A program made the translations under genes and the position numbers. A DNA stretch of 37,084 nucleotides from a virus, in IMG/VR virus record IMGVR_UViG_3300031616_000017, positions 1-37,084 of that record. One strand, given 5' to 3'. Positions 11,374-37,084 of this stretch are shown piece by piece (positions within the stretch are counted from its first letter, which is position 1; every line of letters begins with the position of its first letter). The notes under the pieces are model-generated. The model was not told the origin of the DNA, searched no databases, and worked only from the letters and a program-made list of their open reading frames with translations.

Positions 11374-11376
11374 CGC

Positions 11377-11937
11377 TTAAAACCTGACCATGACTTTTGA
11401 CCGGCCCGGCAAGCCGGCGGCGAGTCGGTCGGCGGCTTCTTCGCGCACGACTTCGGCCTTGAGTTTGTTGCGCAGGCCCATGAATTCGACGGGGGTGCGG
11501 AACTTCATGCGCCGGCCGGCGATTTCGTATTCGTGCGTCCAGGCGCTGGGGCCGTGCGCGACCATGGCCTGGTCGAGCAGGTCGAGCGTCTGGCGGGCGC
11601 TGCTGCGCGTGTCGAAGCCACCGGCCTGCGCGGCGAGGTTGGGCGCGATGGCGATGCTGCCGGTGCCGATGGTGTAGCGTTCGCCGGATTTTTCGACGGT
11701 GGCTTGCCAGGCGTAGGCGCCGGCGGCATAGGCGGCACTGGTCGCCGCGCTGACGCCGACCAGGTGGTCGGCGCCGTCGGCGGCGGCGGTGATGTCGATC
11801 TTGCCGGCAGCGTTGATCAGCCGGTATTTGAGCACCCAGCCGGCGCTGGCGGGGTAATCGACGAGGGTTTTTCGCCAGGCGATGGTGTCGCCGGCGACGA
11901 CCGTGGACGGTTCGCGGGTGGGTACGGTTTGAGCCAT
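11377..11937 (-). CDS. gpW-like head-tail joining domain (C-terminal ~75 aa) with an N-terminal ~110-aa beta-rich extension
   Basis: The C-terminus (ARQTLDLLDQAMV...YEIAGRRMKFRTPVEFMGLRNKLKAEV...GRSKVMVRF) parallels lambda gpW. It sits between terL and the portal gene. Confidence 0.55.
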   Translation of the reverse strand: MAQTVPTREPSTVVAGDTIAWRKTLVDYPASAGWVLKYRLINAAGKIDITAAADGADHLVGVSAATSAAYAAGAYAWQATVEKSGERYTIGTGSIAIAPNLAAQAGGFDTRSSARQTLDLLDQAMVAHGPSAWTHEYEIAGRRMKFRTPVEFMGLRNKLKAEVVREEAADRLAAGLPGRSKVMVRF

Positions 11938-11957
11938 ACCGCTGTTTTATGGTTTTT

Positions 11958-11992
11958 GCTGTCTCGCGGTTAAGCCACGGCGCGAGAAAGTT
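11958..11992 (-). repeat. Copy 2 of the ~35-bp hairpin element, overlapping the 3' end of the Mor-like gene
   Basis: gctgtctcgcggttaagccacggcgcgagaaagtt, with the 7-bp stem TCTCGCG/CGCGAGA. Confidence 0.8.
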
Positions 11993-12275
11993 TCAGCAGG
12001 GCATAGACGCGCTTGATGCTGATCTGGTAGCGGCGGGCGAGGAAGGGGATGCGCTCGCCGTTTTTCCAGTCACGAAACAGCGCCCGGTTGCGCGCCTCGC
12101 GCTGTTCGGCGGCTTCTTTTGGCGGCCCGATGTAGGGGCGCTCGCCTTTCCAGTCCTGATAAATTTCGGCCAGGACTTCGCCAGCCAGCAGGCCGGCGAC
12201 TTCGGCGCTGATGCCGAGTTTTTCGGTCATGCCGGCAACCATGCGGGCACGCACATCTTCCACGAATTCGGACAT
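11970..12275 (-). CDS. Mor-family transcriptional activator-like protein (Mu Mor/C type)
   Basis: The 101-aa protein has a C-terminal HTH (RNRALFRDWKNGERIPFLARRYQISIKRVYALLK) that aligns with Mu Mor (IRDLRIWNDFNGRNVSELTTRYGVTFNTVYKAIRR, recalled from memory). TAATG-coupled to terL. Confidence 0.65.
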   Translation of the reverse strand: MSEFVEDVRARMVAGMTEKLGISAEVAGLLAGEVLAEIYQDWKGERPYIGPPKEAAEQREARNRALFRDWKNGERIPFLARRYQISIKRVYALLKLSRAVA

Positions 12276-14131: not shown

Positions 14132-14373
14132 GCGGGGAAGGGTTCGCCGGTGACGGTGTGCACGGCGCGCTGGCCGGTGTAGGCCTGCCAACGGCGAACG
14201 TCGACGTCGACGTAGTTGGGGGAGAGTTCCATGGCGTAGCAGCGCCGGCCGGTCTGCTCGGCGGCGATGATCGTGGTGCCGCTGCCAGAGAACGGCTCGT
14301 AGATGGCGTCGCCGATCTTGCTGTTGCGCGCGTAAGGGGTGAGGCTGTCGGTGGGCAGGGTTTCGATTTTCAT
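14128..14373 (-). pseudogene. In-frame internal-deletion remnant of a ParB-domain DNA methyltransferase (81 aa)
   Basis: The N-terminus MKIETLPTDSLTPYARN (ParB-N-like) is joined directly to the C-terminal SAM-binding part EPFSGSGTTIIAAEQTGRRCYAMELSPNYVDVDVRRWQ. There is no (D/N)PPY catalytic motif. Confidence 0.7.
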
Positions 14374-14993
14374 GCGGTGGCCTTGGTTTTGAGTTCGTCC
14401 TGCTGGCGCTTGATCGCTTCGCCGATGCCGTGCAGGGCGTCGCGGGCGGACTGGGTGAGGATTTCGTGGATTTCGGCGAGGTTGGATACCGGGGCGACGA
14501 GCGGCGCGGTCTGGTCGGGGAAGACTTCGAGCGCGGCGCGCACGGCGCCGCCGATGAAGCGCATGGCGGCTTCGACGTCTTCACGGCTGATCAGGTCGCC
14601 GATCATGGTTTCGTATTCGGCCTTGGCCTTCAGCGCGCTGTATTTTTCCTTGAAGGCGCGGGCGGTTTGCAGGCTGGTGCCGATTTTCTCGGATTCTGTC
14701 TGCGTGACGGGGGGGGTTGCGGCTTGCGTCGTGGCGCGCTGTGCGGTTTTTCCGGCTGCGCTGGCGCCGTTACCCTGCCCCGCTGCCTTTTTTGCGCCTG
14801 TGCGCGTTTGTGCGTTTCGGGCGGCGACGTCTGGGCGGTTGCCGGCGGTCTGAGCGATGAGTTGTTCGCTGGCTTCGACTTCGACCAGGCCGGCGGCGTT
14901 GAGGACGAGCCGGCCTTCGGCCTTGAGCTTGGTGATGTAGCTCGGGGCGACGCCGAGGTGGCGGGCGAAGGTGGAGAAGTTGGCGGTGGTCAT
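14370..14993 (-). CDS. terS: Terminase small subunit, Nu1-like (N-terminal HTH)
   Basis: The N-terminal HTH is FSTFARHLGVAPSYITKLKAEGRL. The C-terminal half parallels lambda Nu1. It lies immediately upstream of terL. Confidence 0.75.
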   Translation of the reverse strand: MTTANFSTFARHLGVAPSYITKLKAEGRLVLNAAGLVEVEASEQLIAQTAGNRPDVAARNAQTRTGAKKAAGQGNGASAAGKTAQRATTQAATPPVTQTESEKIGTSLQTARAFKEKYSALKAKAEYETMIGDLISREDVEAAMRFIGGAVRAALEVFPDQTAPLVAPVSNLAEIHEILTQSARDALHGIGEAIKRQQDELKTKATA

Positions 14994-17769: not shown

Positions 17770-18446
17770 CGTGCCGTCCTCAGAGCGTCGGCCAGGGCGG
17801 CGTCGAACTGGCGCGGCCATTCGGCGGCGACGATGGCGGCGGCCTTGCGCTGGAAGTCGAAGCGGGGTTTGTACTTGGCCGGCGTGGACGGGAAGACGAT
17901 CAGCGGAATGAGGATGTGCCGGCCGTTCTGGACGACGCGCTTGTAGATTCCGCGCGGGTATTTTTTGCCGCCCTGGTCGGTCGGATCGCCGTAGAACAGC
18001 TCGACCTTGTTGCTGATCTGCACGCGGCGCGCCTTGACCTTGCCGAGCTTGCGTTCATTGTTGGCCACCGCCAGCAACTGGGCGATCAAACCCTTCGGAA
18101 TGTTGCCGAACTCATTGACCTTGATTGCCCCCGGCAGACGCAGTCCGCCAGATCCGGGATGACGCACGCCGCCAGCGATCTGCAGCAGCATGTATTTCGC
18201 CTGTGCGGCCATGAAGCCGACCGTCGCTGAAAGATTCGCCTTGTTGGCGTACTTGAGCACGCGCACTCCGCGCTTCGTGAATGGCGTCGGCTTGTCGATT
18301 GCCCGCTCGATCTCGGCCGGCATCGCCTCGGCGACTTTCTGCGCCGTGGCGTTCAGCGCGCGGCTGGCGGCGAAGGGAATCTGCCGCGCCTTGCCGGCGA
18401 GCTTCGCCTTGAGCGCATCCAGCCCTTCGATCCGAACATTGATCAT
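17766..18446 (-). CDS. Hypothetical protein (226 aa)
   Basis: Start is MINVRIEGLDALKAKL with SD GGGAG. ATGA-coupled on both sides. The N-terminus faintly resembles HK97-gp10/virion-morphogenesis proteins, but this is not secure. Confidence 0.5.
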   Translation of the reverse strand: MINVRIEGLDALKAKLAGKARQIPFAASRALNATAQKVAEAMPAEIERAIDKPTPFTKRGVRVLKYANKANLSATVGFMAAQAKYMLLQIAGGVRHPGSGGLRLPGAIKVNEFGNIPKGLIAQLLAVANNERKLGKVKARRVQISNKVELFYGDPTDQGGKKYPRGIYKRVVQNGRHILIPLIVFPSTPAKYKPRFDFQRKAAAIVAAEWPRQFDAALADALRTAR

Positions 18447-20017: not shown

Positions 20018-20737
20018 ATGGCTACTATCAACCGCATGACACCAGATGCGAAACGATTACTTGACGCGGCGCGAGACCTCAAAAGATTAAAAAGTTACGC
20101 GGACATCGCACGACTCCTCGGCGAGTCCGACCAGACCATGACCAACTGGAAGCGCCGCGGCGTTCCCAAGGAAAAGACCGTTGAAATCTGCCAGAAGATC
20201 GGGTGCCGTCCAGAATGGCTAGAGACCGGCGAATCTCCGATGGTCGAAGAGAAGCGCCTATTACCTTCAGCCGATTTCAAAGTTTCTGAACAACGCGCAC
20301 ACTACACGCCACATAAAAACGTGGAGCCAGGCCCTGATATCAAGGGCCGGATTCCGCTAATTTCGGGGGTGAATGCGGGGATGTGGACAGTAGAAGTGGA
20401 TATTTACGAGCCAGGCTATGCCGAGCTCTGGCTCCCGATTCTGAAGGGAAACAGCGAGCATACGTTTGCGCTGCGTGTCGTCGGCGACTCGATGACTGCA
20501 CGCTTCGGGAAGAGCTACCCGGACGGGTGCATCATTCTTGTTGACCCCAGCAAGCGTGACCCGATCAATGGCGACCGAATTATTGCCAAATTAGCCGGCT
20601 GCGACGATGTCACGCTCAAGGTTTACACCGAGGAGGCTGGACGGCGATGGCTTAGGTCGCTTAACGATCATTACCCGCCTATCTACGATGAATTTACTGT
20701 CATCGGCAAGGTTATGTGGAAACTTGAGGAAGACTAG
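20018..20737 (+). CDS. CI-type repressor: N-terminal HTH plus C-terminal S24 (LexA-like) autopeptidase
   Basis: The HTH is YADIARLLGESDQTMTNWKRRGVP. The S24 motifs are VVGDSM and IIAKL...KV. 239 aa. Confidence 0.85.
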   Translation: MATINRMTPDAKRLLDAARDLKRLKSYADIARLLGESDQTMTNWKRRGVPKEKTVEICQKIGCRPEWLETGESPMVEEKRLLPSADFKVSEQRAHYTPHKNVEPGPDIKGRIPLISGVNAGMWTVEVDIYEPGYAELWLPILKGNSEHTFALRVVGDSMTARFGKSYPDGCIILVDPSKRDPINGDRIIAKLAGCDDVTLKVYTEEAGRRWLRSLNDHYPPIYDEFTVIGKVMWKLEED

Positions 20738-21035: not shown

Positions 21036-21059
21036 GCCGCCGATCGGCGGTCTTTTTTT
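21036..21059 (+). terminator. Rho-independent terminator after the immunity operon
   Basis: The sequence is gccgccgatcggcggtcttttttt. Confidence 0.75.
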
Positions 21060-21079: not shown

Positions 21080-21108
21080 TTGACAACAATAAACATAGTG
21101 TTTAGTAT
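21080..21108 (+). promoter_or_regulatory. Sigma70-type promoter (TTGACA-17-TAGTAT) of the plus-strand early operon, with an embedded operator
   Basis: The sequence is ttgaca-acaataaacatagtgtt-tagtat. The operator TAAACatagtGTTTA (21090-21104) overlaps the spacer and the -10. Confidence 0.65.
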
Positions 21109-23827: not shown

Positions 23828-24286
23828 ATGACCATCACCCTTGAAGCCATCAAGGCCGAGCAGACGAAGCTCGCCGAGATGATCGCCAGCATCGAAGCGG
23901 CCATGAAAGAACCACGTTTCTTCGAGTATCAGGGCGTCCGCATCCCGCTCGCGGAGGGCGAGCGTTACGTCGGCACAGTCATCAGCGCCGACGCTACCAA
24001 GCGCCACCACACCATCCTGCTGCCCGACGAGGTTGAGAATTCCAACTGGAAGAAGTCGATGGAATGGGCGGCCAGTATCGGCGGTGACCTTCCGGATCGC
24101 GTTGAACAGGCATTGCTATTCGCCACGATGAATGGCCAGTTTAAGGAAGCGGCCTACTGGTCCAACACGCAGCACGCCTCGGGCTCTATCGGCAGCTGGT
24201 GTCAGTACTTCGGCAACGGCACCCAGTACGGCCACTTCAAGAGCGCCGAGCTCCGTGCCCGCGCCGTCCGCCGTCTGGAGATTTAA
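23828..24286 (+). CDS. DUF1566 protein, paralog 2
   Basis: Motifs YWSNTQHASGS...KSAELRARAVRRL. It shares a 33-bp identical tract with paralog 1. Confidence 0.7.
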   Translation: MTITLEAIKAEQTKLAEMIASIEAAMKEPRFFEYQGVRIPLAEGERYVGTVISADATKRHHTILLPDEVENSNWKKSMEWAASIGGDLPDRVEQALLFATMNGQFKEAAYWSNTQHASGSIGSWCQYFGNGTQYGHFKSAELRARAVRRLEI

Positions 24287-24288
24287 CC

Positions 24289-24750
24289 GTGGCCACCAAG
24301 GAAACCATTCTGGCTAGAGTCGTGCGCGAGGGTGATTGCCTTGTGTGGACCGGTCACATCAATCGCAGTGGATACGGCTCGGTTTGGCACAACGGAAAGA
24401 ATCGCGACGTTCACCGGGTCTCGTACGAGCTTCATCACGGCCCGATTCCAGAAGGGATGCATGTCATGCATAAGTGCGACAACAGGCCGTGCATCAACCC
24501 GGAGCATTTAAGGACCGGGACGCGCCACGAAAACATGGTGGATATGTTTCTGAAGGATAGGCAGCGACCTCCGTTCGGAGTTAGCCATTACAACGCGAAA
24601 TTAACGGATGCAATCGCCATAGAAGTTCGTGCTCGATATAAGCCATATGACCGAAAGAATGGATCAATGGCGCTTTCTAGGGAATTCGGGGTATCTCAGG
24701 CGGCGATTCACACCCTGCTTAGAGGTGAGACATGGAAGCGTGCGGCATGA
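24289..24750 (+). CDS. HNH endonuclease (HNH_3 type)
   Basis: GTG start with SD GGAGA. Motifs CLVWTGHINRSGYG, HRVSYELHHGPIPEGMHVMHKCDNRPCINPEHL and GTRHENMVD. Confidence 0.8.
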   Translation: MATKETILARVVREGDCLVWTGHINRSGYGSVWHNGKNRDVHRVSYELHHGPIPEGMHVMHKCDNRPCINPEHLRTGTRHENMVDMFLKDRQRPPFGVSHYNAKLTDAIAIEVRARYKPYDRKNGSMALSREFGVSQAAIHTLLRGETWKRAA

Positions 24751-25417: not shown

Positions 25418-25656
25418 CTGTGCTGAATAAATACCAACGCTGGCTCAAAGCTGCGTTCATTTACTACTGGGGCCTCGGCGAAGACGCCGGGATGAGCGAC
25501 TACGAGTGGGACATGCTCTCGCGCAAGTTCTACGCCGAGCGCGACAAGATGACCCTGCCAGAGCACGCGCCACTGCACCGCGAGGAATTCACTGGTGGGA
25601 GCTTGTTCTGGCTGCCGAAGGATGAGTACCCGGCTTTTGTGCGCGCTAACGACTGA
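25414..25656 (+). CDS. Hypothetical protein (80 aa)
   Basis: Starts MTVLNKYQRWLKAAFIYYWG...MSDYEWDML. Its 3' end overlaps the outermost attC box. Confidence 0.55.
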   Translation: MTVLNKYQRWLKAAFIYYWGLGEDAGMSDYEWDMLSRKFYAERDKMTLPEHAPLHREEFTGGSLFWLPKDEYPAFVRAND

Positions 25657-25702
25657 GTTGTGGGGCGCCCGCAGGGCGTCCCGCACGAACGACGGGTTAG
25701 CC
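25644..25702 (-). other. attC-like site A (outermost)
   Basis: The plus strand reads CGCTAAC-gactg-agt/tgt/ggg/gcgccc-gca-gggcg[T]ccc[G]cac[G]aac-gacgg-GTTAGCC. All bulges are on the plus-strand 3' arm. Confidence 0.7.
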
Positions 25703-25743
25703 GGCTACCCGCTACGAAGCCCGGCAAAACTGGAGAAACACAG

Positions 25744-25914
25744 ATGACAACCACCGTAACCATTGCCGCCCACCTCTCGGCCGAAAAGGAAGTGCGCGTG
25801 AAACTGACCGACAACGGCAGCACGACCGAGGAATTCGCCTTGCAGGATGGCGAGAAAGCTGAGCGCTACGTCTATGACGGCCGCGAAATCAGCGTGCAGG
25901 AAGTGGTGAAGTAA
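25744..25914 (+). CDS. Cassette ORF, hypothetical (56 aa)
   Basis: SD TGGAGAA. The sequence starts MTTTVTIAAHLSAEKEVRVKL.... Confidence 0.5.
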   Translation: MTTTVTIAAHLSAEKEVRVKLTDNGSTTEEFALQDGEKAERYVYDGREISVQEVVK

Positions 25915-25916
25915 CC

Positions 25917-26081
25917 ATGCAGTCCTTTTGCTGGTGGTGCGGGAAGAAGCTGCAACTTCCGTTTTACACGGTGGTGATGGATCAACTCGGCCATCGGCAG
26001 AAGATTCACAAGTGCTGCAAGGCTGACGCAGAAAAAGAGATTCGCCCGGCGACGGCACAGCCCAAGCCGGCTAACGCTTGA
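25917..26081 (+). CDS. Cassette ORF, small zinc-finger-like protein (54 aa)
   Basis: The sequence is MQSFCWWCGKKL...HKCCKAD. Read by hand. Its stop lies just after the CTAAC box of site E. Confidence 0.45.
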   Translation: MQSFCWWCGKKLQLPFYTVVMDQLGHRQKIHKCCKADAEKEIRPATAQPKPANA

Positions 26082-26158
26082 GCTATCCGGCAGCGGCGCA
26101 CCGCGCTTGCTGCTACCAAAAGACTTATTACGCTGTCCGGTTGAGCGATTGGTTCGAC
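26069..26158 (-). other. attC-like site E (degenerate)
   Basis: GGCTAACGC ... tccggttgagcgattgGTTCGAC. The right arm is ~75% identical to that of site C, but the stem has a 3x3 internal loop. Confidence 0.45.
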
Positions 26159-26180
26159 GGATACAGAGAAAGGAAACAGC

Positions 26181-26435
26181 ATGGGAACGCTAGAAAGCAT
26201 AAAAGTGAAGCTCATCCAGCAGGGCTACAGCGGGTTGTATTGCGACGGAGAATGCGGATGCGTTGTTGATGATCTCGCGCCGTGCGGCGAATGCGAACAG
26301 GACGATGAAGGATGGATAAACCACTGCGAGCCGGGACACAAGCACATCGACCCGCGCAACGGAGAATTTATCATCAGTCCGCGCAGTACGCCGCCGACGC
26401 CGGAAGAATTCGATCGTGCGTTTGCAAACTGCTGA
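26181..26435 (+). CDS. Cassette ORF, Cys-rich hypothetical protein (84 aa)
   Basis: SD AAAGGAAAC. The motif is YCDGECGCVVDDLAPCGECE. Confidence 0.55.
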   Translation: MGTLESIKVKLIQQGYSGLYCDGECGCVVDDLAPCGECEQDDEGWINHCEPGHKHIDPRNGEFIISPRSTPPTPEEFDRAFANC

Positions 26436-26441
26436 CCTGAC

Positions 26442-26529
26442 GCCGAACGCAGAAATCAGCCCGCCGCGCGAGGCGGCAAACGAAACACCACAAGATTAAC
26501 CCGGTCGCGGCTGGATTGACGGGTTAGGC
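26442..26529 (-). other. attC-like site B
   Basis: GCCGAAC-gcaga-AATCAGCC ... GGCT[G]GATT-gacgg-GTTAGGC. It has 5-nt unpaired spacers, an extrahelical G on the plus 3' arm and a 47-nt variable centre. Confidence 0.7.
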
Positions 26530-26552
26530 ACTTTTGAAGAGAGGAAACAACG

Positions 26553-26873
26553 ATGAAACAGCAACAAACACTGATGCGGTTTGACCCGGCCACTGGCGAC
26601 AGTACCCCGTACCCGTCCCACGCAGCCCAATGGCGCGAGTTCAACGGAGAAATGGCATGGCTGTTCAACCCGTGGAATGGCGAGCGCCGCCATGCAGGCG
26701 ACGTTGGCAGCGACCGGTTCGGGCATTTAATTCTGCCACCAGGCGAACCGGTCTATGCCGAAGCGAAACCCGTGGCGTATTACGACCCGAAAGCGGAGAC
26801 GTTCATGTTCCCGCCGAAGGATGGCGCACGTCCGTTTGCGAAAGCATGGAAGCCGCTGTACGCAGGTGCCTAA
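26553..26873 (+). CDS. Cassette ORF, conserved-looking hypothetical protein (106 aa)
   Basis: SD AGAGGAAAC. The motif is WLFNPWNGERRHAGDVGSDRFGHLI. Its stop TAA lies inside the GCCTAAC box of site C. Confidence 0.6.
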   Translation: MKQQQTLMRFDPATGDSTPYPSHAAQWREFNGEMAWLFNPWNGERRHAGDVGSDRFGHLILPPGEPVYAEAKPVAYYDPKAETFMFPPKDGARPFAKAWKPLYAGA

Positions 26874-26924
26874 CGCACTAGCTCAGGGGCCGCGCAGCGG
26901 TCCCGCTGGAGCGATGGGTTAGCA
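26868..26924 (-). other. attC-like site C
   Basis: GCCTAAC-gcacta-gct/cag/ggg/ccgc-gca-gcgg[T]ccc[G]ctg[G]agc-gatgg-GTTAGCA. Confidence 0.75.
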
Positions 26925-26943
26925 GGCACTGGTAGAGGAAACC

Positions 26944-27696
26944 ATGAATTACGTAATTTCGGCGAGCTACGGGAACGACAGCATGGCGATGCTGAAATGG
27001 GCGCGCGAACACGGCCTGCAAGGCGTGACGGTGGCCTATTGCGATACCGGATGGGCTGCGCCCGGATGGGAAACGCGGGTTGCAGAAGGCGAAGCGCTGG
27101 CCGCGAGCCTTGGGTTTGAAACCGTTCAACTGGAAAGCATGGGCATGGAAGCGCTTGTGCGAATGAAAAAAGGCTTTCCCGGCAACGGACAGCAGTTCTG
27201 TACCGCGTGGCTGAAAGGCATCCCGTTTTTGCAATGGATCGACGAGGCCGACCCGGAGCGCGAAGCCGTTGTGATGATTGGCAAGCGCCGCGCTGAAAGC
27301 GAAGACCGGAAGGAAACGCCGGAATGGGTACAGAAAAGCGAGTACCACGGCGAGCGCAAGGTGTGGCACCCGCTGTACTTGCACAGCGAGCGCGAGCGCG
27401 ACGAACTGCTGATGCGGGCAGGCGTTGCGAAGTTGCCGCACAGAAGCGACGAATGTAGCCCTTGCGTGAATGCCAACAGATTGGATTTGCGCCGGCTGTC
27501 TGGTAGGCAGATTGGACGGACTGCCGCGCTTGAAACCGAAACGGGGCAGCCTATGTTCAGAGCCGCAAAGCACGGCGGGGCGAAAGGGATTGAGCAGGCA
27601 ATTCACTGGGCTAAATATTCGCCGGGCCAGTACAAGCCCGGAATGGATGACCTGTTTGAAGTTGGGTGCGGCTCACCGTTCGGGTGCGGACTGTGA
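26944..27696 (+). CDS. PAPS-reductase-family (PP-loop ATP pyrophosphatase) protein
   Basis: The PP-loop variant is SASYGNDS. Other motifs are KRRAES and the Cys motif ECSPC. 250 aa. Confidence 0.7.
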   Translation: MNYVISASYGNDSMAMLKWAREHGLQGVTVAYCDTGWAAPGWETRVAEGEALAASLGFETVQLESMGMEALVRMKKGFPGNGQQFCTAWLKGIPFLQWIDEADPEREAVVMIGKRRAESEDRKETPEWVQKSEYHGERKVWHPLYLHSERERDELLMRAGVAKLPHRSDECSPCVNANRLDLRRLSGRQIGRTAALETETGQPMFRAAKHGGAKGIEQAIHWAKYSPGQYKPGMDDLFEVGCGSPFGCGL

Positions 27697-27697
27697 C

Positions 27698-27787
27698 TGC
27701 TAACGCTGAAGTGAGGGGTGCCGCGCAATGAAAACAGAAGAGACAACCGCCGCTTGTTCGGCATCCCGCTCGACTGCCGGGTTAGGG
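27698..27787 (-). other. attC-like site D (large variable loop)
   Basis: TGCTAAC-gctga-agt/gag/ggg/tgcc-(37-nt loop)-ggca[T]ccc[G]ctc[G]act-gccgg-GTTAGGG. The lar ATG (27728) lies in the loop. Confidence 0.75.
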
Positions 27788-28051
27788 GCGGAAGAGTTTG
27801 AGGACAGTGTTTTTGACCCTTCTCCCTGCCCGTGCTGCGGAGACGATGCCGCGTTTTGTGTTGTTGATGATGACGGACTTATCGACGGCAGAGCAGGCGG
27901 CTGGTTTATTGAGTGCAACAACCCGATGTGCGGCATTACGACGCAACTTGTCTTTGCCACCGGAGACGACCCGCGAACCAGATTGCTTGAGGTTTGGAAC
28001 AAGCGAGCCCCTAACGGCGAAGTTCAGCGGCCTGCCGCGAAAGGAGAATGA
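27728..28051 (+). CDS. lar: Lar-family restriction alleviation protein
   Basis: Motifs CPCCGDDAAF...GWFIECNNPMCGITT...LEVWNKRA. There is no in-frame start downstream of attC D. Confidence 0.65.
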   Translation: MKTEETTAACSASRSTAGLGAEEFEDSVFDPSPCPCCGDDAAFCVVDDDGLIDGRAGGWFIECNNPMCGITTQLVFATGDDPRTRLLEVWNKRAPNGEVQRPAAKGE

Positions 28052-28052
28052 G

Positions 28053-28709
28053 ATGGGCAACAACGGTTGTTCGGCAGGTCCGCTGGAACGTGTTGTTATG
28101 CGCCTGGCCGCCCTGTTTGTGCAGCCGGACGGTTGCTACGCTGGCCTGCCAGGTGTTGATGCTTGGCCAGAGCATAGAGACGCGAGACTGTACCGTGGTC
28201 CGCTACCGGTGGTTGCGCACCCGCCTTGCCAGTTGTGGGGCGCCATGGCCGCAGTGAATTACGCGCAATGGGGCGGCGAGCACAACCGGCCTGGGAATGA
28301 CGGCGGATGCTTTGCCGCAGCCTTGGAAAGCGTGAGGCGGTTTGGCGGGGTATTGGAGCACCCGGCGAAAACGAAGGCGTGGAATGCGCACGGTCTGGCA
28401 ACCCCCGAAGCCATTGGCTGGCAACTGACCATCGATGGCGGATGGGTGTGCGAGGTGTGGCAAAGCGCCTACGGCCACAGGGCGAACAAAGCGACATGGC
28501 TCTACTACTGCGGAACGAACCCGCCTTTTGAACTGCGGTGGGAGAGGCCGGCAGGAACGCACCAAATTGGTTTTCACGACCAGCGGGGGAAGGCAGCGAA
28601 CAAGCCGACCCTTGGCAAGAGAGAGGCGAACGCCACGCCTTTGGAATTTCGAGACGAACTGCTGCGCCTGGCGATGATGGCGCATAACTTAAATTCAACG
28701 ACACCCTGA
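28053..28709 (+). CDS. C5-cytosine-methyltransferase-fold protein with a PCQ motif but no clear FxGxG SAM motif or target-recognition domain (218 aa)
   Basis: SD AAGGAG. Motifs HPPCQLWG (motif IV-like), VLEHP (ENV-like) and QSAYGHRANKATWLY (motif VIII-like). Confidence 0.45.
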   Translation: MGNNGCSAGPLERVVMRLAALFVQPDGCYAGLPGVDAWPEHRDARLYRGPLPVVAHPPCQLWGAMAAVNYAQWGGEHNRPGNDGGCFAAALESVRRFGGVLEHPAKTKAWNAHGLATPEAIGWQLTIDGGWVCEVWQSAYGHRANKATWLYYCGTNPPFELRWERPAGTHQIGFHDQRGKAANKPTLGKREANATPLEFRDELLRLAMMAHNLNSTTP

Positions 28710-28769
28710 CGTCGCGTTAACGCCTCGCCATGTCGCTTAATAAACCCACGAACCAACGGAGGCCGCATC
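28710..28769 (-). other. Candidate attI (crossover at GTTAAC 28716-28721)
   Basis: The box cgTTAACGC shares the xTAACGC consensus of all attC left boxes. It sits between the first cassette and the intI start. Confidence 0.4.
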
Positions 28770-29792
28770 ATGTATGAAACCGCAGAACAAAACGCGACAT
28801 CCTCGCTCGTGAAAAGCGACATGGCGCCAGCGAAGCCGCTCAAACTGCTCGACCAGGTGCGCAACCGCATCTGCGTCAAGCACTACAGCCGCAGCACAGA
28901 AAAGACCTACCTCTACTGGATCAGGTTTTATATTCATTTTCACCACATCAAGCACCCGCAAGAGATGGGCGCCGTCGAAGTCGAGGCATTCCTCTCGCAC
29001 CTGGCCACCGTCCGAGAAGTCGCCTCCGGAACGCAGAACCAGGCCATGCACGCCATCCTGTTTTTGTACAAGGAAGTGCTCGGCATCGAATTACCCTGGC
29101 TGAACAGCATCACCAAAGCCAAGCCATCGCAGCGCCTGCCGACCGTGCTCACGCAGTCCGAAGCGCAAGCCCTGCTCAAGCACACCAGCGGCCTGCCCGG
29201 CCTCGTTGTCCGCCTGCTCTACGGCACCGGGATGCGCCTCATGGAAGGCCTGCGCCTGCGCGTCAAGGACATTGACTTCGAGCGCCGGCAAATCACCATC
29301 CGCGCCGGCAAAGGCGATAAGGACCGCGTCACCATGCTTCCCGACTCGCTGATCGAACCGCTACAGGCCCGACTCGCTGATCGCCGCAAGATGCACGACA
29401 TCGACCTCGCGCGCGGCTACGCCGACGTCGAACTTCCGCACGCGCTCGAGCGCAAGTACAAAAACGCCGGCAAGGAATTCGGCTGGCAGTACGTGTTCGC
29501 CGCCGCCGACTACTCGACCGACCCGCGCACCGGCGTCATCCGCCGGCACCACATCCACGAAAAAACCATCCAGCGCCACGTCAAACAGGCCGCGAAGCGC
29601 GCCGGCATCATGAAACCGACGCACCCGCACACCCTGCGCCACAGCTTCGCCACGCATCTGCTGGAGGCCGGCTACGACATCCGCACCGTGCAGGAGCTGC
29701 TCGGCCATTCCGACGTATCGACCACGATGATTTATACCCACGTCCTCAACCGCGGCGGGCGCGGCGTCGTCAGCCCGCTGGATCGCAGCTGA
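28770..29792 (+). CDS. intI: Integron integrase (IntI-type tyrosine recombinase)
   Basis: SD GGAGG. The IntI-specific insertion is [40 protein letters not shown]. Catalytic motifs are [26 protein letters not shown] and [15 protein letters not shown]. From memory, roughly half the residues match IntI1. Confidence 0.9.
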
Positions 29793-29806: not shown

Positions 29807-30001
29807 ATGACCTACCTGCACAAAAAAGAACTGATCGCCCTAAGCAATGCCAAGCAGAAGCGCACCCTGCTCAACTGGCTCGCCGAGCTCGGTATCAAGC
29901 ACATCCCCGACGCAGACGGATGGCCCGTGGTAGCTGAATCGGCGATCCGTGCCAAACTGGGCGAATCGCCAAAACGCGAACCGAGGATCAACTTTGCGTA
30001 A
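29807..30001 (+). CDS. DUF4224-like small protein, probable excisionase/recombination directionality factor
   Basis: LHKKELIALSNAKQKRTLLNWLAELGIKHIPDADGWPVV fits the DUF4224 pattern. It lies directly upstream of int. Confidence 0.55.
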   Translation: MTYLHKKELIALSNAKQKRTLLNWLAELGIKHIPDADGWPVVAESAIRAKLGESPKREPRINFA

Positions 30002-30938
30002 ATTTCCGGCCCGCCTGCACGAAAAACACGGCGGCTACTACTACGTCCACAAGAACAAATGGCGCCTGCTGAGTCGCGACTACGGCGAGGCCTTGCGCCT
30101 GTATGCCGACCTGATCGCCCCGAAGCGCGCCGGCAGCGTGCCGGATCTGATTGATCGCGGCATCGAGCGCAAGGCGCTGGCCGCCAATACAAAAAAAGCC
30201 TACCGGATCGCGGCCGGAAAACTCAAGATCGCCTTCGAGGCATTCGACGCCGAAGATTTCCGGCCGACACATTTTTACCAATGGATTACCGCAAAGAAGA
30301 TCACCGGCAGCATGGCGCAGCTCTACCGCTCGGTGATGGTCGCAGCCATGGCGCTGGGGATCGAGGAAGGGTTGATCGACATCAATCCGATGCGCGAGGT
30401 GCGCCAGTGGCGCGGCGGCCAGCGCGACCGCTACCTGACCGATGCTGAATACATCGCCATCCGCGAAAAGGCCAATCCGGTGCTGCAGGCGATCATCACT
30501 ATTAGCCTGCAGACCGGCCAGCGCATCGGCGACGTGCTCAAAATCACCTACGCCGACATCTCAGACGCCGGACTCTACGTCCAGCAGGAAAAAACAGACG
30601 AGAAACTGCGCCTAGCCTGGACGCCCGACCTGCGCGAAGCGATCAAGCAAGCCAAGGCCGTGCACACCAGCCTCAAGGGCATGACCCTGTTCAGCACCCG
30701 GCAAGGGAAACCGCTGCCCTACAGCACCGTTCGCGGCTGGTGGCTGAAAGCCACGGCGCTGGCCGGCATCGAAAACGGCAACATGCACGACATCCGCGCC
30801 AAGGCCGCCACCGACGCCGACGAGCAGGGCCTCGACTCACAAGCCCTGCTCGGACATCGCAGCGAACAGACCCACCAGCGCTACCTTCGCGGCAAGAAAA
30901 TCAAGGTCGTTCAACCGCTGCCAATGGTAAAACCTTAG
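29949..30938 (+). CDS. int: Phage integrase (lambda-type tyrosine recombinase); the likely true start is TTG 29994
   Basis: Motifs GGYYYV, TGQRIGDVL, HDIRAKAATD and LLGHRSEQTHQRYLR. SD GAGGA lies 5 nt before the TTG at 29994. Confidence 0.85.
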   Translation: MPNWANRQNANRGSTLRKFPARLHEKHGGYYYVHKNKWRLLSRDYGEALRLYADLIAPKRAGSVPDLIDRGIERKALAANTKKAYRIAAGKLKIAFEAFDAEDFRPTHFYQWITAKKITGSMAQLYRSVMVAAMALGIEEGLIDINPMREVRQWRGGQRDRYLTDAEYIAIREKANPVLQAIITISLQTGQRIGDVLKITYADISDAGLYVQQEKTDEKLRLAWTPDLREAIKQAKAVHTSLKGMTLFSTRQGKPLPYSTVRGWWLKATALAGIENGNMHDIRAKAATDADEQGLDSQALLGHRSEQTHQRYLRGKKIKVVQPLPMVKP

Positions 30939-31237
30939 ACACCGCCTATAAATCTTAGACAGCACAGGCCGCAAAGCCTTGATTCATGCGGGTTTGAATA
31001 ACTCGCGATTATTGCTCAAAAAAACGCAGCAAATATAGTAAGGCTTTGAACTGTTGAGAGAAAGCTAAACTTTTGTCTAACGCAGAGCAGTAATTTTCTG
31101 GAAATCACGCCCAGTATTGGCGCGGGTTGTGGCGGTATGCTTAGACGCCGAAACGGCCGGCAATCGCCACCAGAACCGCCGCCAGCTGGGCGACGTGGCG
31201 ATCATGCCGAGGTGGCGCAGATTCGCCGGTGCGGCCA
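30939..31237. other. attP region (AT-rich, non-coding) with four TTAGAC arm-type repeats
   Basis: CTTAGAC occurs at 30935-41, 30953-59 and 31140-46, and inverted GTCTAA at 31074-79. It is the only long non-coding AT-rich stretch and lies next to int. Confidence 0.5.
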
Positions 31238-32771: not shown

Positions 32772-33419
32772 TCAAACGTCAGCGGTAACACGCACGACGT
32801 TGGTGCCGTCGGCGTAAAGGATGGCGCGCTTTCCGGCCGCCACGACGATGCCGGTGCCGGTGGCGCCGATGAACTGCAGGCCGAATCCTCCCGTGGTGTT
32901 GTTGAACACCGTCCATTGCTGCGTCGGCAGCGGCACGACGATGTTGCGTTGCGCGGTCAGCGTGCCGGTGAATTGCAGGATATTGTTACGGGCCTCGGCA
33001 GCGGTCAGCGTGGTATTGGCATCGGTCATTGCCTTGGCGAGCAGGCCGGTGATCTGCGGGGCCTGCAGGCGATAGTCGGTGTAGCTGGTGATCGTGCTCG
33101 CGCCGGCGACGATCTGATAGAGCGGGATGCTGCCGGCGGTGAAGCCAGTGGTGTTTTTGCTCACCACGCCGGCGCGGGTTGTCTCGACGTAGTTGGTCAG
33201 AGACGCGGTCAGCGCCAGCGTACCGTTGGCGATTTGCGTGAGAACGCCGTCGACGCTGATCGTGCCGCCGTAGTAGCCCCAGGTCAGACCGGAGGTGGTC
33301 GATTGCCGGCGGCCGAAGGTAGTCGCCGGGCTGGCGGCGTCGAAGAAGGCGTTGGCGGTGACTTCTTTCCCAGCCTGCGCCTGGGTAATCGCGTCAAAAG
33401 TGGCGGTCGAGTTACTCAT
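32772..33419 (-). CDS. Tail fibre / receptor-binding candidate (DUF2793-like N-terminus)
   Basis: Starts MSNSTATFDAITQAQAGKEVTANAFFD with SD GAGGT. It lies directly after the J-like gene. Gly/Thr-rich. Confidence 0.45.
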   Translation of the reverse strand: MSNSTATFDAITQAQAGKEVTANAFFDAASPATTFGRRQSTTSGLTWGYYGGTISVDGVLTQIANGTLALTASLTNYVETTRAGVVSKNTTGFTAGSIPLYQIVAGASTITSYTDYRLQAPQITGLLAKAMTDANTTLTAAEARNNILQFTGTLTAQRNIVVPLPTQQWTVFNNTTGGFGLQFIGATGTGIVVAAGKRAILYADGTNVVRVTADV

Positions 33420-33421
33420 GA

Positions 33422-36400
33422 TTACCTCGTGATGCTGGTAGTTAGCGGGTAGCCCCGGCCGACGTTGGCCGAAAGCTGATAGACCTTGACGTAGATCGTG
33501 GCCTGGTTGCTGCCGAAATCGGTGACCTGCTGCGCGCTGGTGTAGGCTGCAGTAGGTGTGGAAAGTCCGGTGAGCGTGCGCTTGACGGTGGTATAGGCCG
33601 CGCTGCTGAAGATGTCGATTTCGTAGGACTGCGTCGTCTCGCCGAGCGTCGCGTCGACATAGTCGCGCCACGCCCCGCCGACGCGCGTACGGCGCAGCCA
33701 GTCGAGCGACCAGTCGTTGCTCGTCGGGTGGCGGTTGCCGTTGAGATAGCACGGCGACAGGCACTCCAGATTGACGCCGGTGTAGGCAAAATCATTGTCG
33801 GCGGCAGAATCCAGCGCCTTGCCCGAGGTGATGCCGCGATAGGTGCGCAGCAGCCCGATACTGTTCAGGCTGGACCCGACGAAGGCCAGCCGCGTTGAAT
33901 CGAGCAGAACGATCTTGTCGCCAGCGACATGCAGGCCACAGGCCCACTCGCTGCCCTGCCGGCCGCGCAGCAGATCGGTCAGGACATAGCTGCCATCGCC
34001 CTGCAGCGTGCAGTTCTGTGCGGCGATGATCTCCCAGCGGCCGTCGATACCATAGGCGAAGTGGTTGGCGCCGCCGAGCATGGCGAGTTCGGTGACGCTT
34101 GACAACGTGCCGCTGGTCAGCACCACAGCCAGTGCGCTGGCCTTATCGATCAGGTCGGTACGCCCGGCGCCGACGCTGTTGCTGGCATAGCCGATCACGG
34201 CACCGGGCGCAGAGAAGCCCTGCAGATCGGTCCAGGTCTGCCCTTCGTCGTCGGTTCGGTAGAGCACGCCGCCCGGCCAGCCGGCCAGGTAACCGGTCAT
34301 CGCTACTGGGAAGCCCGGCAGATCGGTAGCGTCGAGCAGCAGCGGGATGTCGAGCAGCTCGTAACGCGTGGCGCCGGCCAGCGTCAGCGTTCCGCCGGTC
34401 GATTGCCCTTCCTCGCCGAGCGCGGCCGGGGCGTAGATCGCGGCGCTGTTGTATTTGGCCGTGCATTCCAGCCGGCCGTCCTGCGTGTAGGTGATGGCGG
34501 TCAGGCGCAGGGAATAGACCGCCTCCGTCGCGTTGATCGTGATGACATCGGCCGGCTCCAGCTGGTTGTAGGTCGGCGGCAAGCGGAAGGTGAGGTCATA
34601 GCGCTCCAGCCAGTAGAGGTACAACAGCATTTCGGCGGTGGCTGCCGATTCGCCGCCGATCATCACGATGGCCATATCGATGCTTCGGATATTCACGGCA
34701 TCTGTGTTCAAGCGTTCGGCGTACTGCTCGCCGGTATCGTATTCCCGGCTGGCATCGAGGTACTTGATGCTGACGCGGGCCGGCAGAACGCTATCCATTT
34801 CGCGGGTGTTGGTGATGCTGACGCCGGATTTTTCACCAGCGCCGCGGGCGTCGAGATCGATCGCCGGGATCGTTGCCACGCTGCTTCCACCACGCAGGCG
34901 GAAGACGATCTGATAGCCAGACTGCACGGCATCGAATGGCCAGGCGCCCTGCAGTGGCTCCAGCGCCGAGCGGATCGCTGCAACGCTGGCGACGCGGTAG
35001 CCGCGGACGGTTTGTGTGAGCGCGCTGGTATTGATATCGCCGACATCCAGCAGATTGCTGGCGAGAAGCTCGGCCTGGACAATGCTCGATAACGAGGTTG
35101 TCCCCGATGCCAAAAGGTCGAATTTTACGTTTCCGACCCGGCTGGTATAGGCGAAGTTGAACCAAGCGCCGTTGTAGCGAACGACGCCCATGACTGTCGA
35201 TAATGCCGTCCATGTATTCCCATCATCACGGGAATATTTCGACCTCACTCCGTTCGCGACGACCCATATGCCATCGCCAAAGGCGAGCGATGAGTTGCTT
35301 CCGCCGGTACTGCTGTTGGTTTGAAGATTCCAGGTCACCCCATCGTCGATTGATGTTGCTATTTGACCCGTCTGCCCAAGCGCCATGAAAATGCCGTTAC
35401 CATAGGCGACATCCTGCCACCCAGGAACTGATGGCGGCATGGAAATCGTGGCCCACAGAGCCCCATCATTCGAGGTCGAACAAACCGTACCATTAAATGC
35501 CACGGTGCACACGGTGGTGCCTGACCACGCCAGCCCAAGCCATTGATATAGGGCGATTGCGGAACTATAGGTAAGCCATGAAATTCCATCGAATGACGTG
35601 AACGTCGAAGTGACGCTCATCCCGGTCGCTACAAAAATAGACCCTGTCCAGACAATTGCCGAGCGCGATGGGAATGGAAGGTCAGCGCCCATAAACCAGG
35701 CAACACCGTCGAAGGAGTAGGCTGTTTTTGTCACCCCGCCAGAGTTACCGGTGGCGATGAACTTATCCTTCCCCCAAATAATCCTGTTCCAGCTAAATGC
35801 CGGCATCTGGATATTGACGAAAGACGCGCCGCCGTCGTTTGAGAGGTGTCCAATTCCTGCGGCGGCATTGTAGCCGAGGGAGACGACGATCTGCCCGTTA
35901 CTGGCAATAAAGTAATCCGGGTCTTGACTTGCTACGGTAACGGTCGTCACCGATATCGACGACGAACCGGCTACGACAACCTCGACCTTGATCGGCGCAC
36001 CAGCCAGGCTGTTGCCATGATCGGCGAGCGGGTAATCCTTGAGCACCAGATAGGCCAGTCCGCGATAGGCTGGCGTGTTGGCGACGCCGAGCGTGGCCTG
36101 CATGCGATCATCCGGCAGCTGCGTATCGCTGCCCTGGTGCAGTGTGAAAAGACCGGAGACAGCATTGCTGGCCGCGATCGTGGCGTAATCAGAACCGCCA
36201 GCGTCATAGATCAGTTTCGACCCGACCCAGATCCGCCGCACGCCGACGATCGGCCCTTCGCACAGGCCGACGGCGAAGGTGGCGAAATAGGAATAGGTTG
36301 TCGTCGTGCTGGTCGGGCCGCCCTTGCCGCCCTGCGACTCGGTGCGCGCGACTTCCTTCAGGGCGTTGTTTTCGAGCCAGAAGACGTTGCCGTAGAGCGC

Positions 36401-36622
36401 GACAGTGCCGTAGACGCGCGGGATGACGGCGCCATAGGTGCTGGTCTGGACGGAGAGGTCGGAGAGGCGCGGCCCCTCCATGTGCGGGCCTTTTGGGGGG
36501 TCGAGCAGGCCGCCGACGCCCATTCCAATCTGGGCGCCATAGAGCGCGCCAGACGGGCCGCCAATGAAGAAGCCGGCGACGGCACCAACAACGCCACCGA
36601 CAGCCTGACCGACGCTACTCAT
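33422..36622 (-). CDS. Host-specificity (J-like / RcGTA g15-like) tail tip protein with an inserted Asp-box (BNR) beta-propeller region
   Basis: Starts MSSVGQAVGG (ATG 36622), ATGA-coupled to the NlpC/P60 gene. The N-terminus is ...PRLSDLSVQTSTYGAVIPRVYG. Internal repeats follow the SxDxGxxW pattern. Confidence 0.85.
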   Translation of the reverse strand: MSSVGQAVGGVVGAVAGFFIGGPSGALYGAQIGMGVGGLLDPPKGPHMEGPRLSDLSVQTSTYGAVIPRVYGTVALYGNVFWLENNALKEVARTESQGGKGGPTSTTTTYSYFATFAVGLCEGPIVGVRRIWVGSKLIYDAGGSDYATIAASNAVSGLFTLHQGSDTQLPDDRMQATLGVANTPAYRGLAYLVLKDYPLADHGNSLAGAPIKVEVVVAGSSSISVTTVTVASQDPDYFIASNGQIVVSLGYNAAAGIGHLSNDGGASFVNIQMPAFSWNRIIWGKDKFIATGNSGGVTKTAYSFDGVAWFMGADLPFPSRSAIVWTGSIFVATGMSVTSTFTSFDGISWLTYSSAIALYQWLGLAWSGTTVCTVAFNGTVCSTSNDGALWATISMPPSVPGWQDVAYGNGIFMALGQTGQIATSIDDGVTWNLQTNSSTGGSNSSLAFGDGIWVVANGVRSKYSRDDGNTWTALSTVMGVVRYNGAWFNFAYTSRVGNVKFDLLASGTTSLSSIVQAELLASNLLDVGDINTSALTQTVRGYRVASVAAIRSALEPLQGAWPFDAVQSGYQIVFRLRGGSSVATIPAIDLDARGAGEKSGVSITNTREMDSVLPARVSIKYLDASREYDTGEQYAERLNTDAVNIRSIDMAIVMIGGESAATAEMLLYLYWLERYDLTFRLPPTYNQLEPADVITINATEAVYSLRLTAITYTQDGRLECTAKYNSAAIYAPAALGEEGQSTGGTLTLAGATRYELLDIPLLLDATDLPGFPVAMTGYLAGWPGGVLYRTDDEGQTWTDLQGFSAPGAVIGYASNSVGAGRTDLIDKASALAVVLTSGTLSSVTELAMLGGANHFAYGIDGRWEIIAAQNCTLQGDGSYVLTDLLRGRQGSEWACGLHVAGDKIVLLDSTRLAFVGSSLNSIGLLRTYRGITSGKALDSAADNDFAYTGVNLECLSPCYLNGNRHPTSNDWSLDWLRRTRVGGAWRDYVDATLGETTQSYEIDIFSSAAYTTVKRTLTGLSTPTAAYTSAQQVTDFGSNQATIYVKVYQLSANVGRGYPLTTSITR

Positions 36623-37032
36623 ACCGTATCCTTGAAACGATACACGCGCACGATGCGCGCGGCCCACACATCGGCCATGCGGTGCTCGCAGACCTTGCCG
36701 ACCTGCGCGTAGCTGTGGATGAGGTTGGCGCCGGCATCGATGGCCAGGTGCTGCGGGTCGCCGGTGAAGCGCATCAGCAGCACGTCGCCGGGCTGGCGTT
36801 CGAGGATCGGCACGCCGTGCAGGCAGGGCTGCTCATCGAGGGCGGACTGCAGCAGGTTACCGGACGGGCTGCGTCCATAGCCGGCCACGTCGCGATAGTC
36901 GGCACCGATGGCCTGGGCGACGGCAACGATCAGACCGGCGCAGTCGAGCGCGCGGCCGGGAATGCGGCCCTGGTGCAGGAATGGCGTATCGAGGCAGGCA
37001 CGCGCGGCGGCGAGGATATCGTCAGCGCTCAT
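36619..37032 (-). CDS. NlpC/P60-family tail-associated cell-wall peptidase (RcGTA g14-like)
   Basis: Motifs GRALDCAGLI (catalytic Cys context) and ...GDVLLMRF...QHLAI. 137 aa. Its start lies inside the terminal overlap. Confidence 0.8.
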   Translation of the reverse strand: MSADDILAAARACLDTPFLHQGRIPGRALDCAGLIVAVAQAIGADYRDVAGYGRSPSGNLLQSALDEQPCLHGVPILERQPGDVLLMRFTGDPQHLAIDAGANLIHSYAQVGKVCEHRMADVWAARIVRVYRFKDTV

Positions 37033-37084
37033 TGCGTACCTACCTGCGCATATTGCGAGCTGGTCGGCACATACGAAAAGCCAC
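36958..37084. repeat. Terminal overlap, identical to 1-127
   Basis: Direct comparison. Confidence 0.95.

Follow-up and report, generated by a model that had tools for sequence, protein, structure and literature searches.

Evidence for an integron with inverted cassettes in the early region of a temperate tailed-phage genome

The stretch of DNA analysed here, hereafter the window (37,084 nucleotides, IMG/VR virus record IMGVR_UViG_3300031616_000017), contains an integron integrase gene (intI), an attI site directly in front of it and six cassettes bounded by attC sites, all lying among the genes of a phage (Table 1). The ends of the window are identical over exactly 127 bp (1-127 and 36958-37084), hence it is a complete circular genome with a unit length of 36,957 bp. 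Matches to the PHROG families of terminase, portal, major head, tape measure, tail, primase, repressor, excisionase and integrase, together with encoded lysis functions, place the modules of a temperate tailed phage (Caudoviricetes) on this one circular molecule. A block of + strand genes runs from the region of the repressor and HNH endonuclease through the cassette array to intI, an excisionase-like gene (xis) and the phage integrase gene (int), with intI at the far end of a rightward early operon, immediately before xis, int and attP. An earlier note, made by a model from the sequence and a list of its open reading frames (ORFs), had proposed a complete integron at this position.

The product of intI matches the NCBIfam model of integron integrases (TIGR02249) with 473 bits against a cutoff of 265, and also matches PF13495 and PF00589. 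It aligns end to end with VchIntIA (PDB 2A3V; E 3.5e-87) with a single 1-aa gap and none across the insertion found only in integron integrases, and XerA, XerC and XerD match it only as two pieces on either side of that insertion (residues ~209-257). In the alignment with VchIntIA, sequence is conserved in the blocks that surround the catalytic residues (R, K, HxxR, H and Y). The earlier note's picture of an intact IntI-type recombinase, carrying the specific insertion in the stretch it had quoted and all of the catalytic residues, is thus borne out. The protein does not belong to the class 1, 2 or 3 mobile integrons, being 55% identical to IntI1 and having no transposon genes nearby; against the equivalog model NF011946 it scores 391.6, under the cutoff of 435. 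Ratios of nonsynonymous to synonymous substitution (dN/dS) against relatives of the same clade were 0.10-0.35, on the basis of which intI appears to be under purifying selection. No LexA box (CTGT-N8-ACAG, up to one mismatch) was found within 25-31 kb of the window; SOS control of intI via such a box is common in integrons, although not universal.

The attC sites were called with a covariance model, R1, built from six class 1 attC sites only (aadA2, orfF, dfrA12, psp, aadA1 and cmlA1; AB571791, P1 L-II record), this restriction being chosen to avoid circularity. R1 was trained on equal-length sites with N-padded loops and took the place of a MAFFT alignment of full-length attC sites, in which the 3' arms were misaligned. 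A second model, R2, was trained on 111 matches from the window and related loci and is therefore not independent for the six sites of the window. R1 called all five palindromes of the earlier note (19.7-36.4 bits), exactly where the note had them and with the AAC...GTT boxes, 5-6-nt spacers and one-sided bulges that it described. The count of five did not stand, since a sixth site, attC F, had been overlooked; it was first spotted by our own box-plus-stem structural scan, between the Lar-like and phrog_12600 ORFs, and is the best R1 match of the window. The scan itself gave dozens of matches on both strands and was too permissive to be used as evidence, serving only for attC F and for the class 1 control. 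With filters off, R1 found nothing significant in the whole 37-kb genome beyond the six sites, the next match being a bare GC hairpin (E 0.085), and under R2 the six sites scored 46-57 bits and the next best match 17 bits.

In the predicted folds the AAC/GTT boxes are paired and the unpaired spacers are 5 and 5-6 nt long. Single-base bulges are confined to the 5' arm of the minus strand (C, C and A in attC A; e.g. GTT-C-GTG-C-GGG-A-CGCCC), a pattern resembling the top strand of class 1 aadA-type sites (GTT-C-AAGCCG-A-CGCCGC), and attC B (GCT-C-AACCGG-A-CAGCG) has the aadA-type layout itself. The 3-3-GGG layout that the earlier note described as common to three sites is present, in the first, fourth and fifth of its sites (25644, 26868 and 27698) rather than in the three it named. 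None of the hairpins is followed by a run of T. The window and the first 31 related loci together gave 104 distinct sites; when these were aligned by fitting to the model, 91.6% of cells were paired. Changes on both sides of a pair number 496 compared to 171 in shuffles, and 0 of 500 shuffles attain 496.

In an alignment of the 130 bp upstream of intI from 12 loci (IntI 71-92% identical to that of the window), sequences are conserved to the right of an invariant AAC and unrelated to its left. Conservation stops there, and AAC 28686-28688 is thus the junction of conserved and variable sequence that marks the attI crossover, giving an attI of 82 bp (~28688-28769) containing repeated ATGTCGC(G/A)T(T/A)AAC motifs. 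The earlier note had placed attI at GTTAAC 28716-28721; this lies inside attI, within one of the repeated motifs, but the junction is instead at the AAC. A motif, AACTTAAATTCAACGACAC, lies ~83-85 bp upstream of intI in most of the phage-type clade loci checked, and in other loci yields just a few weak matches (3-4 mismatches) elsewhere.

With attC F and the new attI junction, the cassettes, which had been put at 373-1017 bp, become six of 311-830 bp, attC F dividing the supposed 1017-bp cassette into 311 + 673 bp. The genes are closely fitted to the recombination sites. The Lar-like ORF has its start codon (27728) in the variable loop of attC E, therefore attC E belongs to the cassette on its right and the boundaries are read on the minus strand; the same ORF stops after 37 nt of attC F. 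For the cassette-1 ORF, the probable start codon is ATG 28098, within the R'' box (GTTATGC) of attC F, since homologs of the protein begin there; the last 7 codons of this ORF are encoded by attI. Box sequences also serve as ORF ends: the TAA of CTAAC in attC D (26871-26873) is the stop codon of the cassette-4 ORF.

Table 1. Features of the window. A slash marks the crossover point; R1 and R2 are the covariance models described in the text.
Feature	Position	Strand	Size or basis
intI, integron integrase	28770-29792	+	340 aa; TIGR02249; 2A3V alignment
attI	28686-28769	-	AAC crossover 28686-28688 (predicted), then ~80 conserved bp up to intI start codon
Cassette array, six cassettes	25650-28687	-	boundaries at AA/C of each R' box
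Cassette 1 (nearest attI)	28015-28687		673 bp
Cassette 2	27704-28014		311 bp
Cassette 3	26874-27703		830 bp
Cassette 4	26448-26873		426 bp
Cassette 5	26075-26447		373 bp
Cassette 6	25650-26074		425 bp
attC A (last in array)	25644-25702	-	R1 36.4 bits, R2 55.4; bottom-strand crossover AA/C 25649/25650
attC B	26069-26158	-	R1 35.6 bits, R2 51.7; crossover 26074/26075
attC C	26442-26529	-	R1 22.9 bits (E 0.0045), R2 46.3; crossover 26447/26448; R' box imperfect (GTTCGGC)
attC D	26868-26924	-	R1 33.1 bits, R2 49.4; crossover 26873/26874
attC E	27698-27787	-	R1 19.7 bits (E 0.04, weak), R2 52.6; crossover 27703/27704
attC F	28009-28101	-	R1 38.6 bits, R2 56.5; crossover 28014/28015
Cassette-6 ORFs, two small	25744-25914 and 25917-26081	+	SD-like (Shine-Dalgarno-like) motif upstream of 25744; no family matches
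Cassette-5 ORF, Cys-rich	26181-26435	+	84 aa; SD motif; 38% homolog adjoins an attC in L034
Cassette-4 ORF	26553-26873	+	106 aa; 65% homolog on + strand inside L018 array
PAPS-reductase-like, cassette 3	26944-27696	+	PF01507 E 1.1e-6; phrog_424 E 9.8e-25
Lar-like restriction-alleviation protein, cassette 2	27728-28051	+	phrog_599 E 4e-6; weak assignment
phrog_12600 protein, cassette 1	28053-28709	+	phrog_12600 E 2.6e-68
xis-like gene (DUF4224)	29807-30001	+	PF13986 E 1.5e-7; excisionase phrog_8896 E 1.3e-9
Phage tyrosine integrase Int	29949-30938	+	PF00589 E 8.7e-16; phrog_1
attP core, approximate	30985-31023		L001/L002 comparison
CI-like repressor, UmuD/LexA-like domain	20018-20737	+	phrog_4 E 1.5e-41
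Candidate early rightward promoter, TTGACA-17-TAGTAT	21080-21108	+	consensus scan only
HNH endonuclease	24199-24750	+	PHROG
Primase	15316-17820	-	PHROG
Large terminase	12275-14584	-	PHROG
Portal	9847-11373	-	PHROG
Major head/protease	6088-7950	-	PHROG
Tape measure	1768-3969	-	PHROG
Tail proteins	33422-36667 and 32772-33764	-	PHROG

The polarity of the recombination sites is that of any integron. The attC top strand of the window lies opposite intI, as in the class 1 control (L032), and in 35 loci from genome collections (metagenome-assembled genomes, MAGs, and isolates) all 128 R1 matches were on the strand opposite intI. In the class 1 control intI1 is on the + strand, and the minus strand carries the cassette genes as well as the attC top strand. 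In the window every supported cassette gene is on the + strand, antisense to attC and codirectional with the early genes, intI, xis and int, and most + ORFs have SD-like motifs ahead of them. The cassette genes of the window thus do not lie in the orientation that is read from Pc, the platform promoter, whereas those of the chromosomal controls are canonical. A consensus scan found no minus-strand promoter-like site near attI or intI.

The same comparison can be made across arrays. In 14 loci of the phage clade, the longest ORFs on the + strand (55) gave 51 PHROG families (E<=1e-5), and those on the minus strand (57) gave one. In 16 chromosomal arrays, the 59 longest + strand ORFs gave a single Pfam family, compared to 27 Pfam families, including Cass2, tautomerase, GNAT and TIR, from the 59 ORFs of the minus strand. 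Judged by homology, inverted cassette genes therefore appear to be the rule in a phage-specific IntI/attI clade, of which chromosomal arrays are the mirror image. An independent gene caller put all genes upstream of intI on the + strand in L114, L117 and the ERZ1426748 contig, and did so in L118 with the exception of one helix-turn-helix gene ~9 kb upstream. A strand classifier based on longest ORFs and GC content at third codon positions (GC3) proved noisy in this high-GC DNA and miscalled two cassettes of the window, hence the homology tests were used instead.

The cassette ORFs have GC3 values of 0.56-0.75, compared to 0.75-0.90 for the phage core genes. The cassette-1 protein has >7,700 homologs, which make up a very large and highly conserved family of phage proteins without a name, and we found no Pfam, NCBIfam or PDB sequence match for it. 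It has a PPCQ motif, which similarity to C5-methyltransferases does not back. Its homolog in Ralstonia phage PQ43W lies in an ordinary early region without attC sites. Two of the cassette ORFs without a family match (26181-26435 and 25917-26081) encode small Cys-rich proteins with CxxC-type motifs. Among the families matched by cassette cargo across the phage clade are several of DNA methyltransferases, together with Mom-like modification proteins, PAPS reductases and a DHH phosphoesterase.

Homologs of the IntI at 75-92% identity are numerous, many of them on contigs of 34-47 kb, and relatives are carried by 27 IMG/VR contigs; a metagenome scan for relatives returned none closer than 79%. The closest relative (IntI 92%) carries a different first cassette. 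It is present both as a circular phage, in which intI, xis and int are followed by lysis and tail genes, and as a prophage, in which int adjoins host genes (Glrx-like, degP, rseC, rpoE, nadB and fab). Two relatives at 78% are prophages beside tig-clpP-clpX-lon. In a crude neighbour-joining tree the viral and prophage IntIs fall into one clade, apart from almost all IntIs of the genome collections; three MAG loci lie inside it, and among the IMG/VR loci L024 groups with the chromosomal sequences and L023 with IntI1. All IntIs of the genome collections are at most 66% identical to that of the window, except for two MAG contigs, of Rhodocyclaceae (81%) and Azoarcus (78%). As these are the nearest genome-collection IntIs, they suggest that the host is a Rhodocyclaceae-type betaproteobacterium.

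Pairs of near-identical relatives differ by whole cassettes. Apart from one 424-bp cassette with a Phage_gp49_66 gene, L114 and L011, from different samples, are virtually identical (at least one point difference). L114 holds this cassette twice, in the array and beside attI (8485-8908 and 9495-9918), and L011 once, beside attI, with junctions at AA/C. This is the footprint expected of excision followed by re-insertion at attI. L007 and L006 are 99-99.9% identical in their flanks and differ in the content and order of their cassettes, with breakpoints inside attC sites. Since near-identical relatives differ by such cassette-precise changes, the integron system is apparently active within this phage lineage. 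Many independent assemblies (L001-L004, L010, L012, L021, L022 and L030) break off at attI or slightly past it, 40-400 bp upstream of intI, as variable cassette arrays would cause them to do.

Two related loci have a more complex arrangement. In L009 (11263-13430) and L034 (11297-11790) intI and the xis-like gene are followed by additional attC-bounded cassettes, and these by a second attI copy with ~50 nt from the 5' end of intI. This second copy is 77-83% identical to the first, so that each locus has two arrays and one intact intI. In L009 the second attI copy is upstream of the phage int gene.

The integration module beside intI is the phage's own. The xis-like gene, int and attP proposed in the earlier note are all confirmed, by the DUF4224 and excisionase PHROG matches, by a second tyrosine integrase and by comparison of relatives, and so is its view that IntI is not the phage integration enzyme: in the relatives a separate Int or serine recombinase always follows intI, and the junction of prophage and host lies beyond int. 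Int likely starts at TTG 29994, giving 314 aa in agreement with the gene calls of relatives. Similarity of the window to an integrated prophage (L001) ends at 31023, and to a circular form (L002) extends to 31241. In its prophage form (L001, 2424-2693) the 92% relative has inserted into the 3' end of a glutaredoxin-like host gene, and it apparently provides a replacement for that end. In L114 (IntI 78%) a 543-aa large serine recombinase (11376-13007) replaces xis and the tyrosine Int, with intI and attI in place; intI is therefore independent of the integration module. No relative of the window's backbone was found among GenBank phages.

We propose that the window holds a genuine and probably active integron in a lambda-like temperate tailed phage of a Rhodocyclaceae-type betaproteobacterium, whose inverted cassettes are read with the early transcript, and we put the probability of this at roughly 85%. 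As in other integrons, cassettes would leave through attC x attC recombination by IntI and enter at attI, with the + strand of the window as the recombining (bottom) attC strand. The array would not be read from a Pc near intI; it may instead be read within the early transcript of the phage, from a repressor-controlled promoter near 21.1 kb through the cassettes to intI, xis and int. The candidate promoter lies downstream of the CI-like repressor gene and of a terminator-like hairpin (21036-21051), a simple consensus scan found no strong + strand terminator between it and position 30987, just after int, and intI is preceded only by attI. Cassette genes and integrase would then be turned on together upon infection or SOS-driven induction, when the phage DNA replicates, with SOS control exerted through the LexA-like phage repressor in place of a LexA box at intI. 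In such a phage the integron could act as a swap rack for early or counter-defence genes.

Several observations weigh against this proposal. The hairpins, folded on both strands with DNA parameters, took the expected shapes, but their energies were no better than those of shuffles (z -1.8 to +1.0) and are thus not usable as evidence; support for the attC sites comes from architecture and covariation, not from stability. Two of the sites, attC C and attC E, are weak under the class-1-only model (E values in Table 1) and strong only under R2, which was trained partly on them. Three + strand ORFs overrun their cassette boundary by 7-37 nt, therefore their C-terminal tails would change on cassette movement. 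Promoter-like matches in the region are no commoner than in shuffles (4 compared to 4.0), promoters and terminators alike having been called by simple consensus, and the read-through transcript accordingly stands as a proposal. The activity of the window's own copy would follow from that of its relatives. The counter-defence role is suggested by family names, and of these the Lar-like assignment falls short of the PF14354 gathering score (21.3 bits compared to 28.6; E 3.3e-4) and of the NCBIfam cutoff; among the seven cassette ORFs, four lack any family match, and these are spread over three of the six cassettes. Finally, the tree that separates phage-type from chromosomal IntIs is crude and carries no support values.

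It could be argued that a piece of a host chromosomal integron was passively captured by imprecise excision and is now inert cargo. Such capture has been proposed for at least the Vibrio anguillarum prophage (PMC9892861), and the integron of the window does adjoin int and attP, where imprecise excision adds host DNA. However, the integrated form has the integron inside the int boundary, not outside it, and the IntI and attI belong to a clade with its own motif, whose inspected loci lie in phages or prophages, with few genome-collection IntIs close to it (the two MAG contigs at 78-81%, and the three further MAG loci in the clade). Captured cargo is also hard to reconcile with cassette genes that are inverted and phage-type, unlike those of chromosomal arrays, with arrays that turn over between phages 99-100% identical, and with purifying selection on intI, and we consider capture very unlikely. 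A second integration route, whereby IntI inserts the circular phage into an attC or attI site of a host integron and cassette shuffling is secondary, fares little differently and is also unlikely. Formally, an attC-bearing circular genome amounts to one giant cassette, Qi et al. (PMC9892861) noted a Vibrio prophage with attC sites on its flanks, and the duplicated attI with a truncated intI 5' end in L009 and L034 points to larger rearrangements at attI; yet beyond int every integrated relative seen lies beside ordinary host genes (the Glrx-like 3' end or tig-clpP) rather than in an attC array, and near-identical phages differ by single cassettes.

The remaining explanations dispense with either the phage or the integron. 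A bacterial integron contig might have been joined to phage DNA during metagenomic assembly, a concern raised by the many related contigs that break just upstream of attI, although a variable array would itself produce such breaks. The contig closes on itself with the exact terminal overlap, the same intI-xis-int order recurs in independent assemblies, both as circular phage and as prophage beside host genes, and the synteny of early genes, array, intI, xis/int and lysis/tail genes is repeated across independent samples and assemblers (L114, L115, L011, L007, L006 and ERZ1426748); this recurrence means that the join is not chimeric, and an artefact is extremely improbable. We give equally little credence to the view that no integron is present, with terminators or intergenic repeats of the phage in place of attC sites and an Xer-like enzyme with another job in place of IntI. 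The hairpins have unremarkable folding energies and are intergenic, as terminators are, but a model built from class 1 sites finds them strand-specifically, they share the one-sided C...A bulges and 5/6-nt spacers of aadA-type attC, they lack a following T-run, insertions and deletions fall precisely at AA/C, and the recombinase has the insertion specific to IntI.

Taking the relatives together, we lean towards a broader reading, in which the window represents a phage-adapted class of integron. The class would have an IntI clade and an attI type of its own and be widespread among the prophages of Rhodocyclaceae-like Betaproteobacteria. Its backwards cassettes would be plugged into the early operon and draw on a shared, fast-swapping pool of early and counter-defence genes (methyltransferases, Mom-like, PAPS-reductase-like and Lar-like), and the class may be a source of the attC clusters found in prophages that lack an integrase.

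The earlier note was unaware of any complete integron in a tailed phage, but such integrons had already been reported: in a screen of 10,705 phage genomes, Qi et al. (2023; PMC9892861) found three complete integrons, one In0 and 17 clusters of attC sites lacking an integron integrase (CALINs). The complete integrons are those of Shewanella phage M16-3 (a cryptic prophage), Vibrio anguillarum phage Va_90-11-286_p16 and the E. coli P1 isolate L-II (PMC9892861). The Vibrio case is a subset of the host chromosomal array, the P1 case a clinical class 1 mosaic, and the IntI and attI of M16-3 are nearly identical to those of a chromosomal Shewanella integron (PMC9892861). We find that the M16-3 cassette genes are canonical, on the minus strand, and that a LexA site is annotated. 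A tblastn search of 50,697 GenBank phage records with the IntI returned only the records of Qi et al., fragments, and Virus Rctr41k, all at no more than 55% identity. The IntI-like gene of Virus Rctr41k (L200, KX853513; 41 kb) at 4680-5678 is 48% identical and annotated xerD, with codirectional neighbours that include methyltransferases; R1 found no attC in this genome with filters off. Beyond Qi et al., we found no description of a phage-specific integron lineage or of inverted cassette arrays. Set against the literature searched, in which phage integrons were reported as rare captures, a resident phage integron lineage with inverted cassettes thus appears to be new.

An array of this kind is present in a cultured isolate. 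The prophage of Dechloromonas sp. TW-R-39-2 (L202, CP045202.1) has nine attC sites (9254-12286; R2 33-60 bits) interleaved with + strand genes at the end of its early region, and no intI within 10 kb. One of its cassettes holds an 82% homolog of the window's cassette-1 protein, the homology ending exactly at window position 28688. This lysogen could serve as an experimental system, and many complete phage genomes exist.

Integrons have been regarded as belonging to bacteria, with promoterless cassettes that depend on a platform promoter, and the few phage cases as accidental captures. Our results point to an integron lineage owned by phages, with cassettes inverted in a way that may allow their expression from the early operon, and with cargo across the clade that resembles anti-restriction and DNA-modification genes. 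If this is correct, phages would be using in the arms race the same cassette system with which bacteria bank defence systems, as a phage-side mirror, and would maintain a separate cassette pool, with genes in an orientation that the Pc of a canonical array does not read. The result also has implications for the origin of cassettes, as ordinary phage early genes are found both inside and outside them.

In most of its architecture the window resembles the canonical integrons, both class 1 mobile and sedentary chromosomal (Beta- and Gammaproteobacteria). As in these, the integrase has the IntI insertion and attI immediately precedes intI; the attC sites have R''/L''/L'/R' boxes, spacers that are unpaired and, on the bottom strand, extrahelical bases, and their top strand lies opposite intI. 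Cassettes of 0.3-0.8 kb are shared as well and so is, in the relatives of the window, duplication of a cassette beside attI. The window differs in having no LexA box at intI, a tailed-phage replicon, phage-type cargo, and a separate IntI/attI clade with its own motif, and in cassette genes that are antisense to attC, which a Pc in intI or attI cannot express. In the standard model, cassettes are promoterless and have to be inserted so that Pc reads them (PMC5027507).

The phages of Qi et al. likewise carry a complete integron (intI and attC cassettes) in a temperate phage or prophage record, in M16-3 at the prophage end, but their IntIs are just 45-55% identical to that of the window, and none was described as a phage-specific lineage or as inverted. 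CALINs, in phages of the same screen (PMC9892861) as in the Dechloromonas prophage, also consist of attC-bounded genes in a phage early region, and the Dechloromonas array is equally inverted. Unlike them, the array of the window adjoins both intI and attI. In the 'inverted integrase' integron of Treponema denticola it is intI that is flipped, lying upstream of an array whose genes are normal relative to attC. The window resembles it in that intI and the cassette genes are codirectional, but in the window intI, attI and attC have their canonical arrangement, and it is the genes within the cassettes that are flipped. The lambda PL operon is repressor-controlled, carries accessory and anti-restriction genes (ral etc.) and ends in xis-int-attP; lambda is without a site-specific cassette system, and its accessory genes change by illegitimate or homologous recombination. 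The window follows the same order of repressor, accessory early genes, xis, int and attP, a likeness that we regard as a functional analogy.

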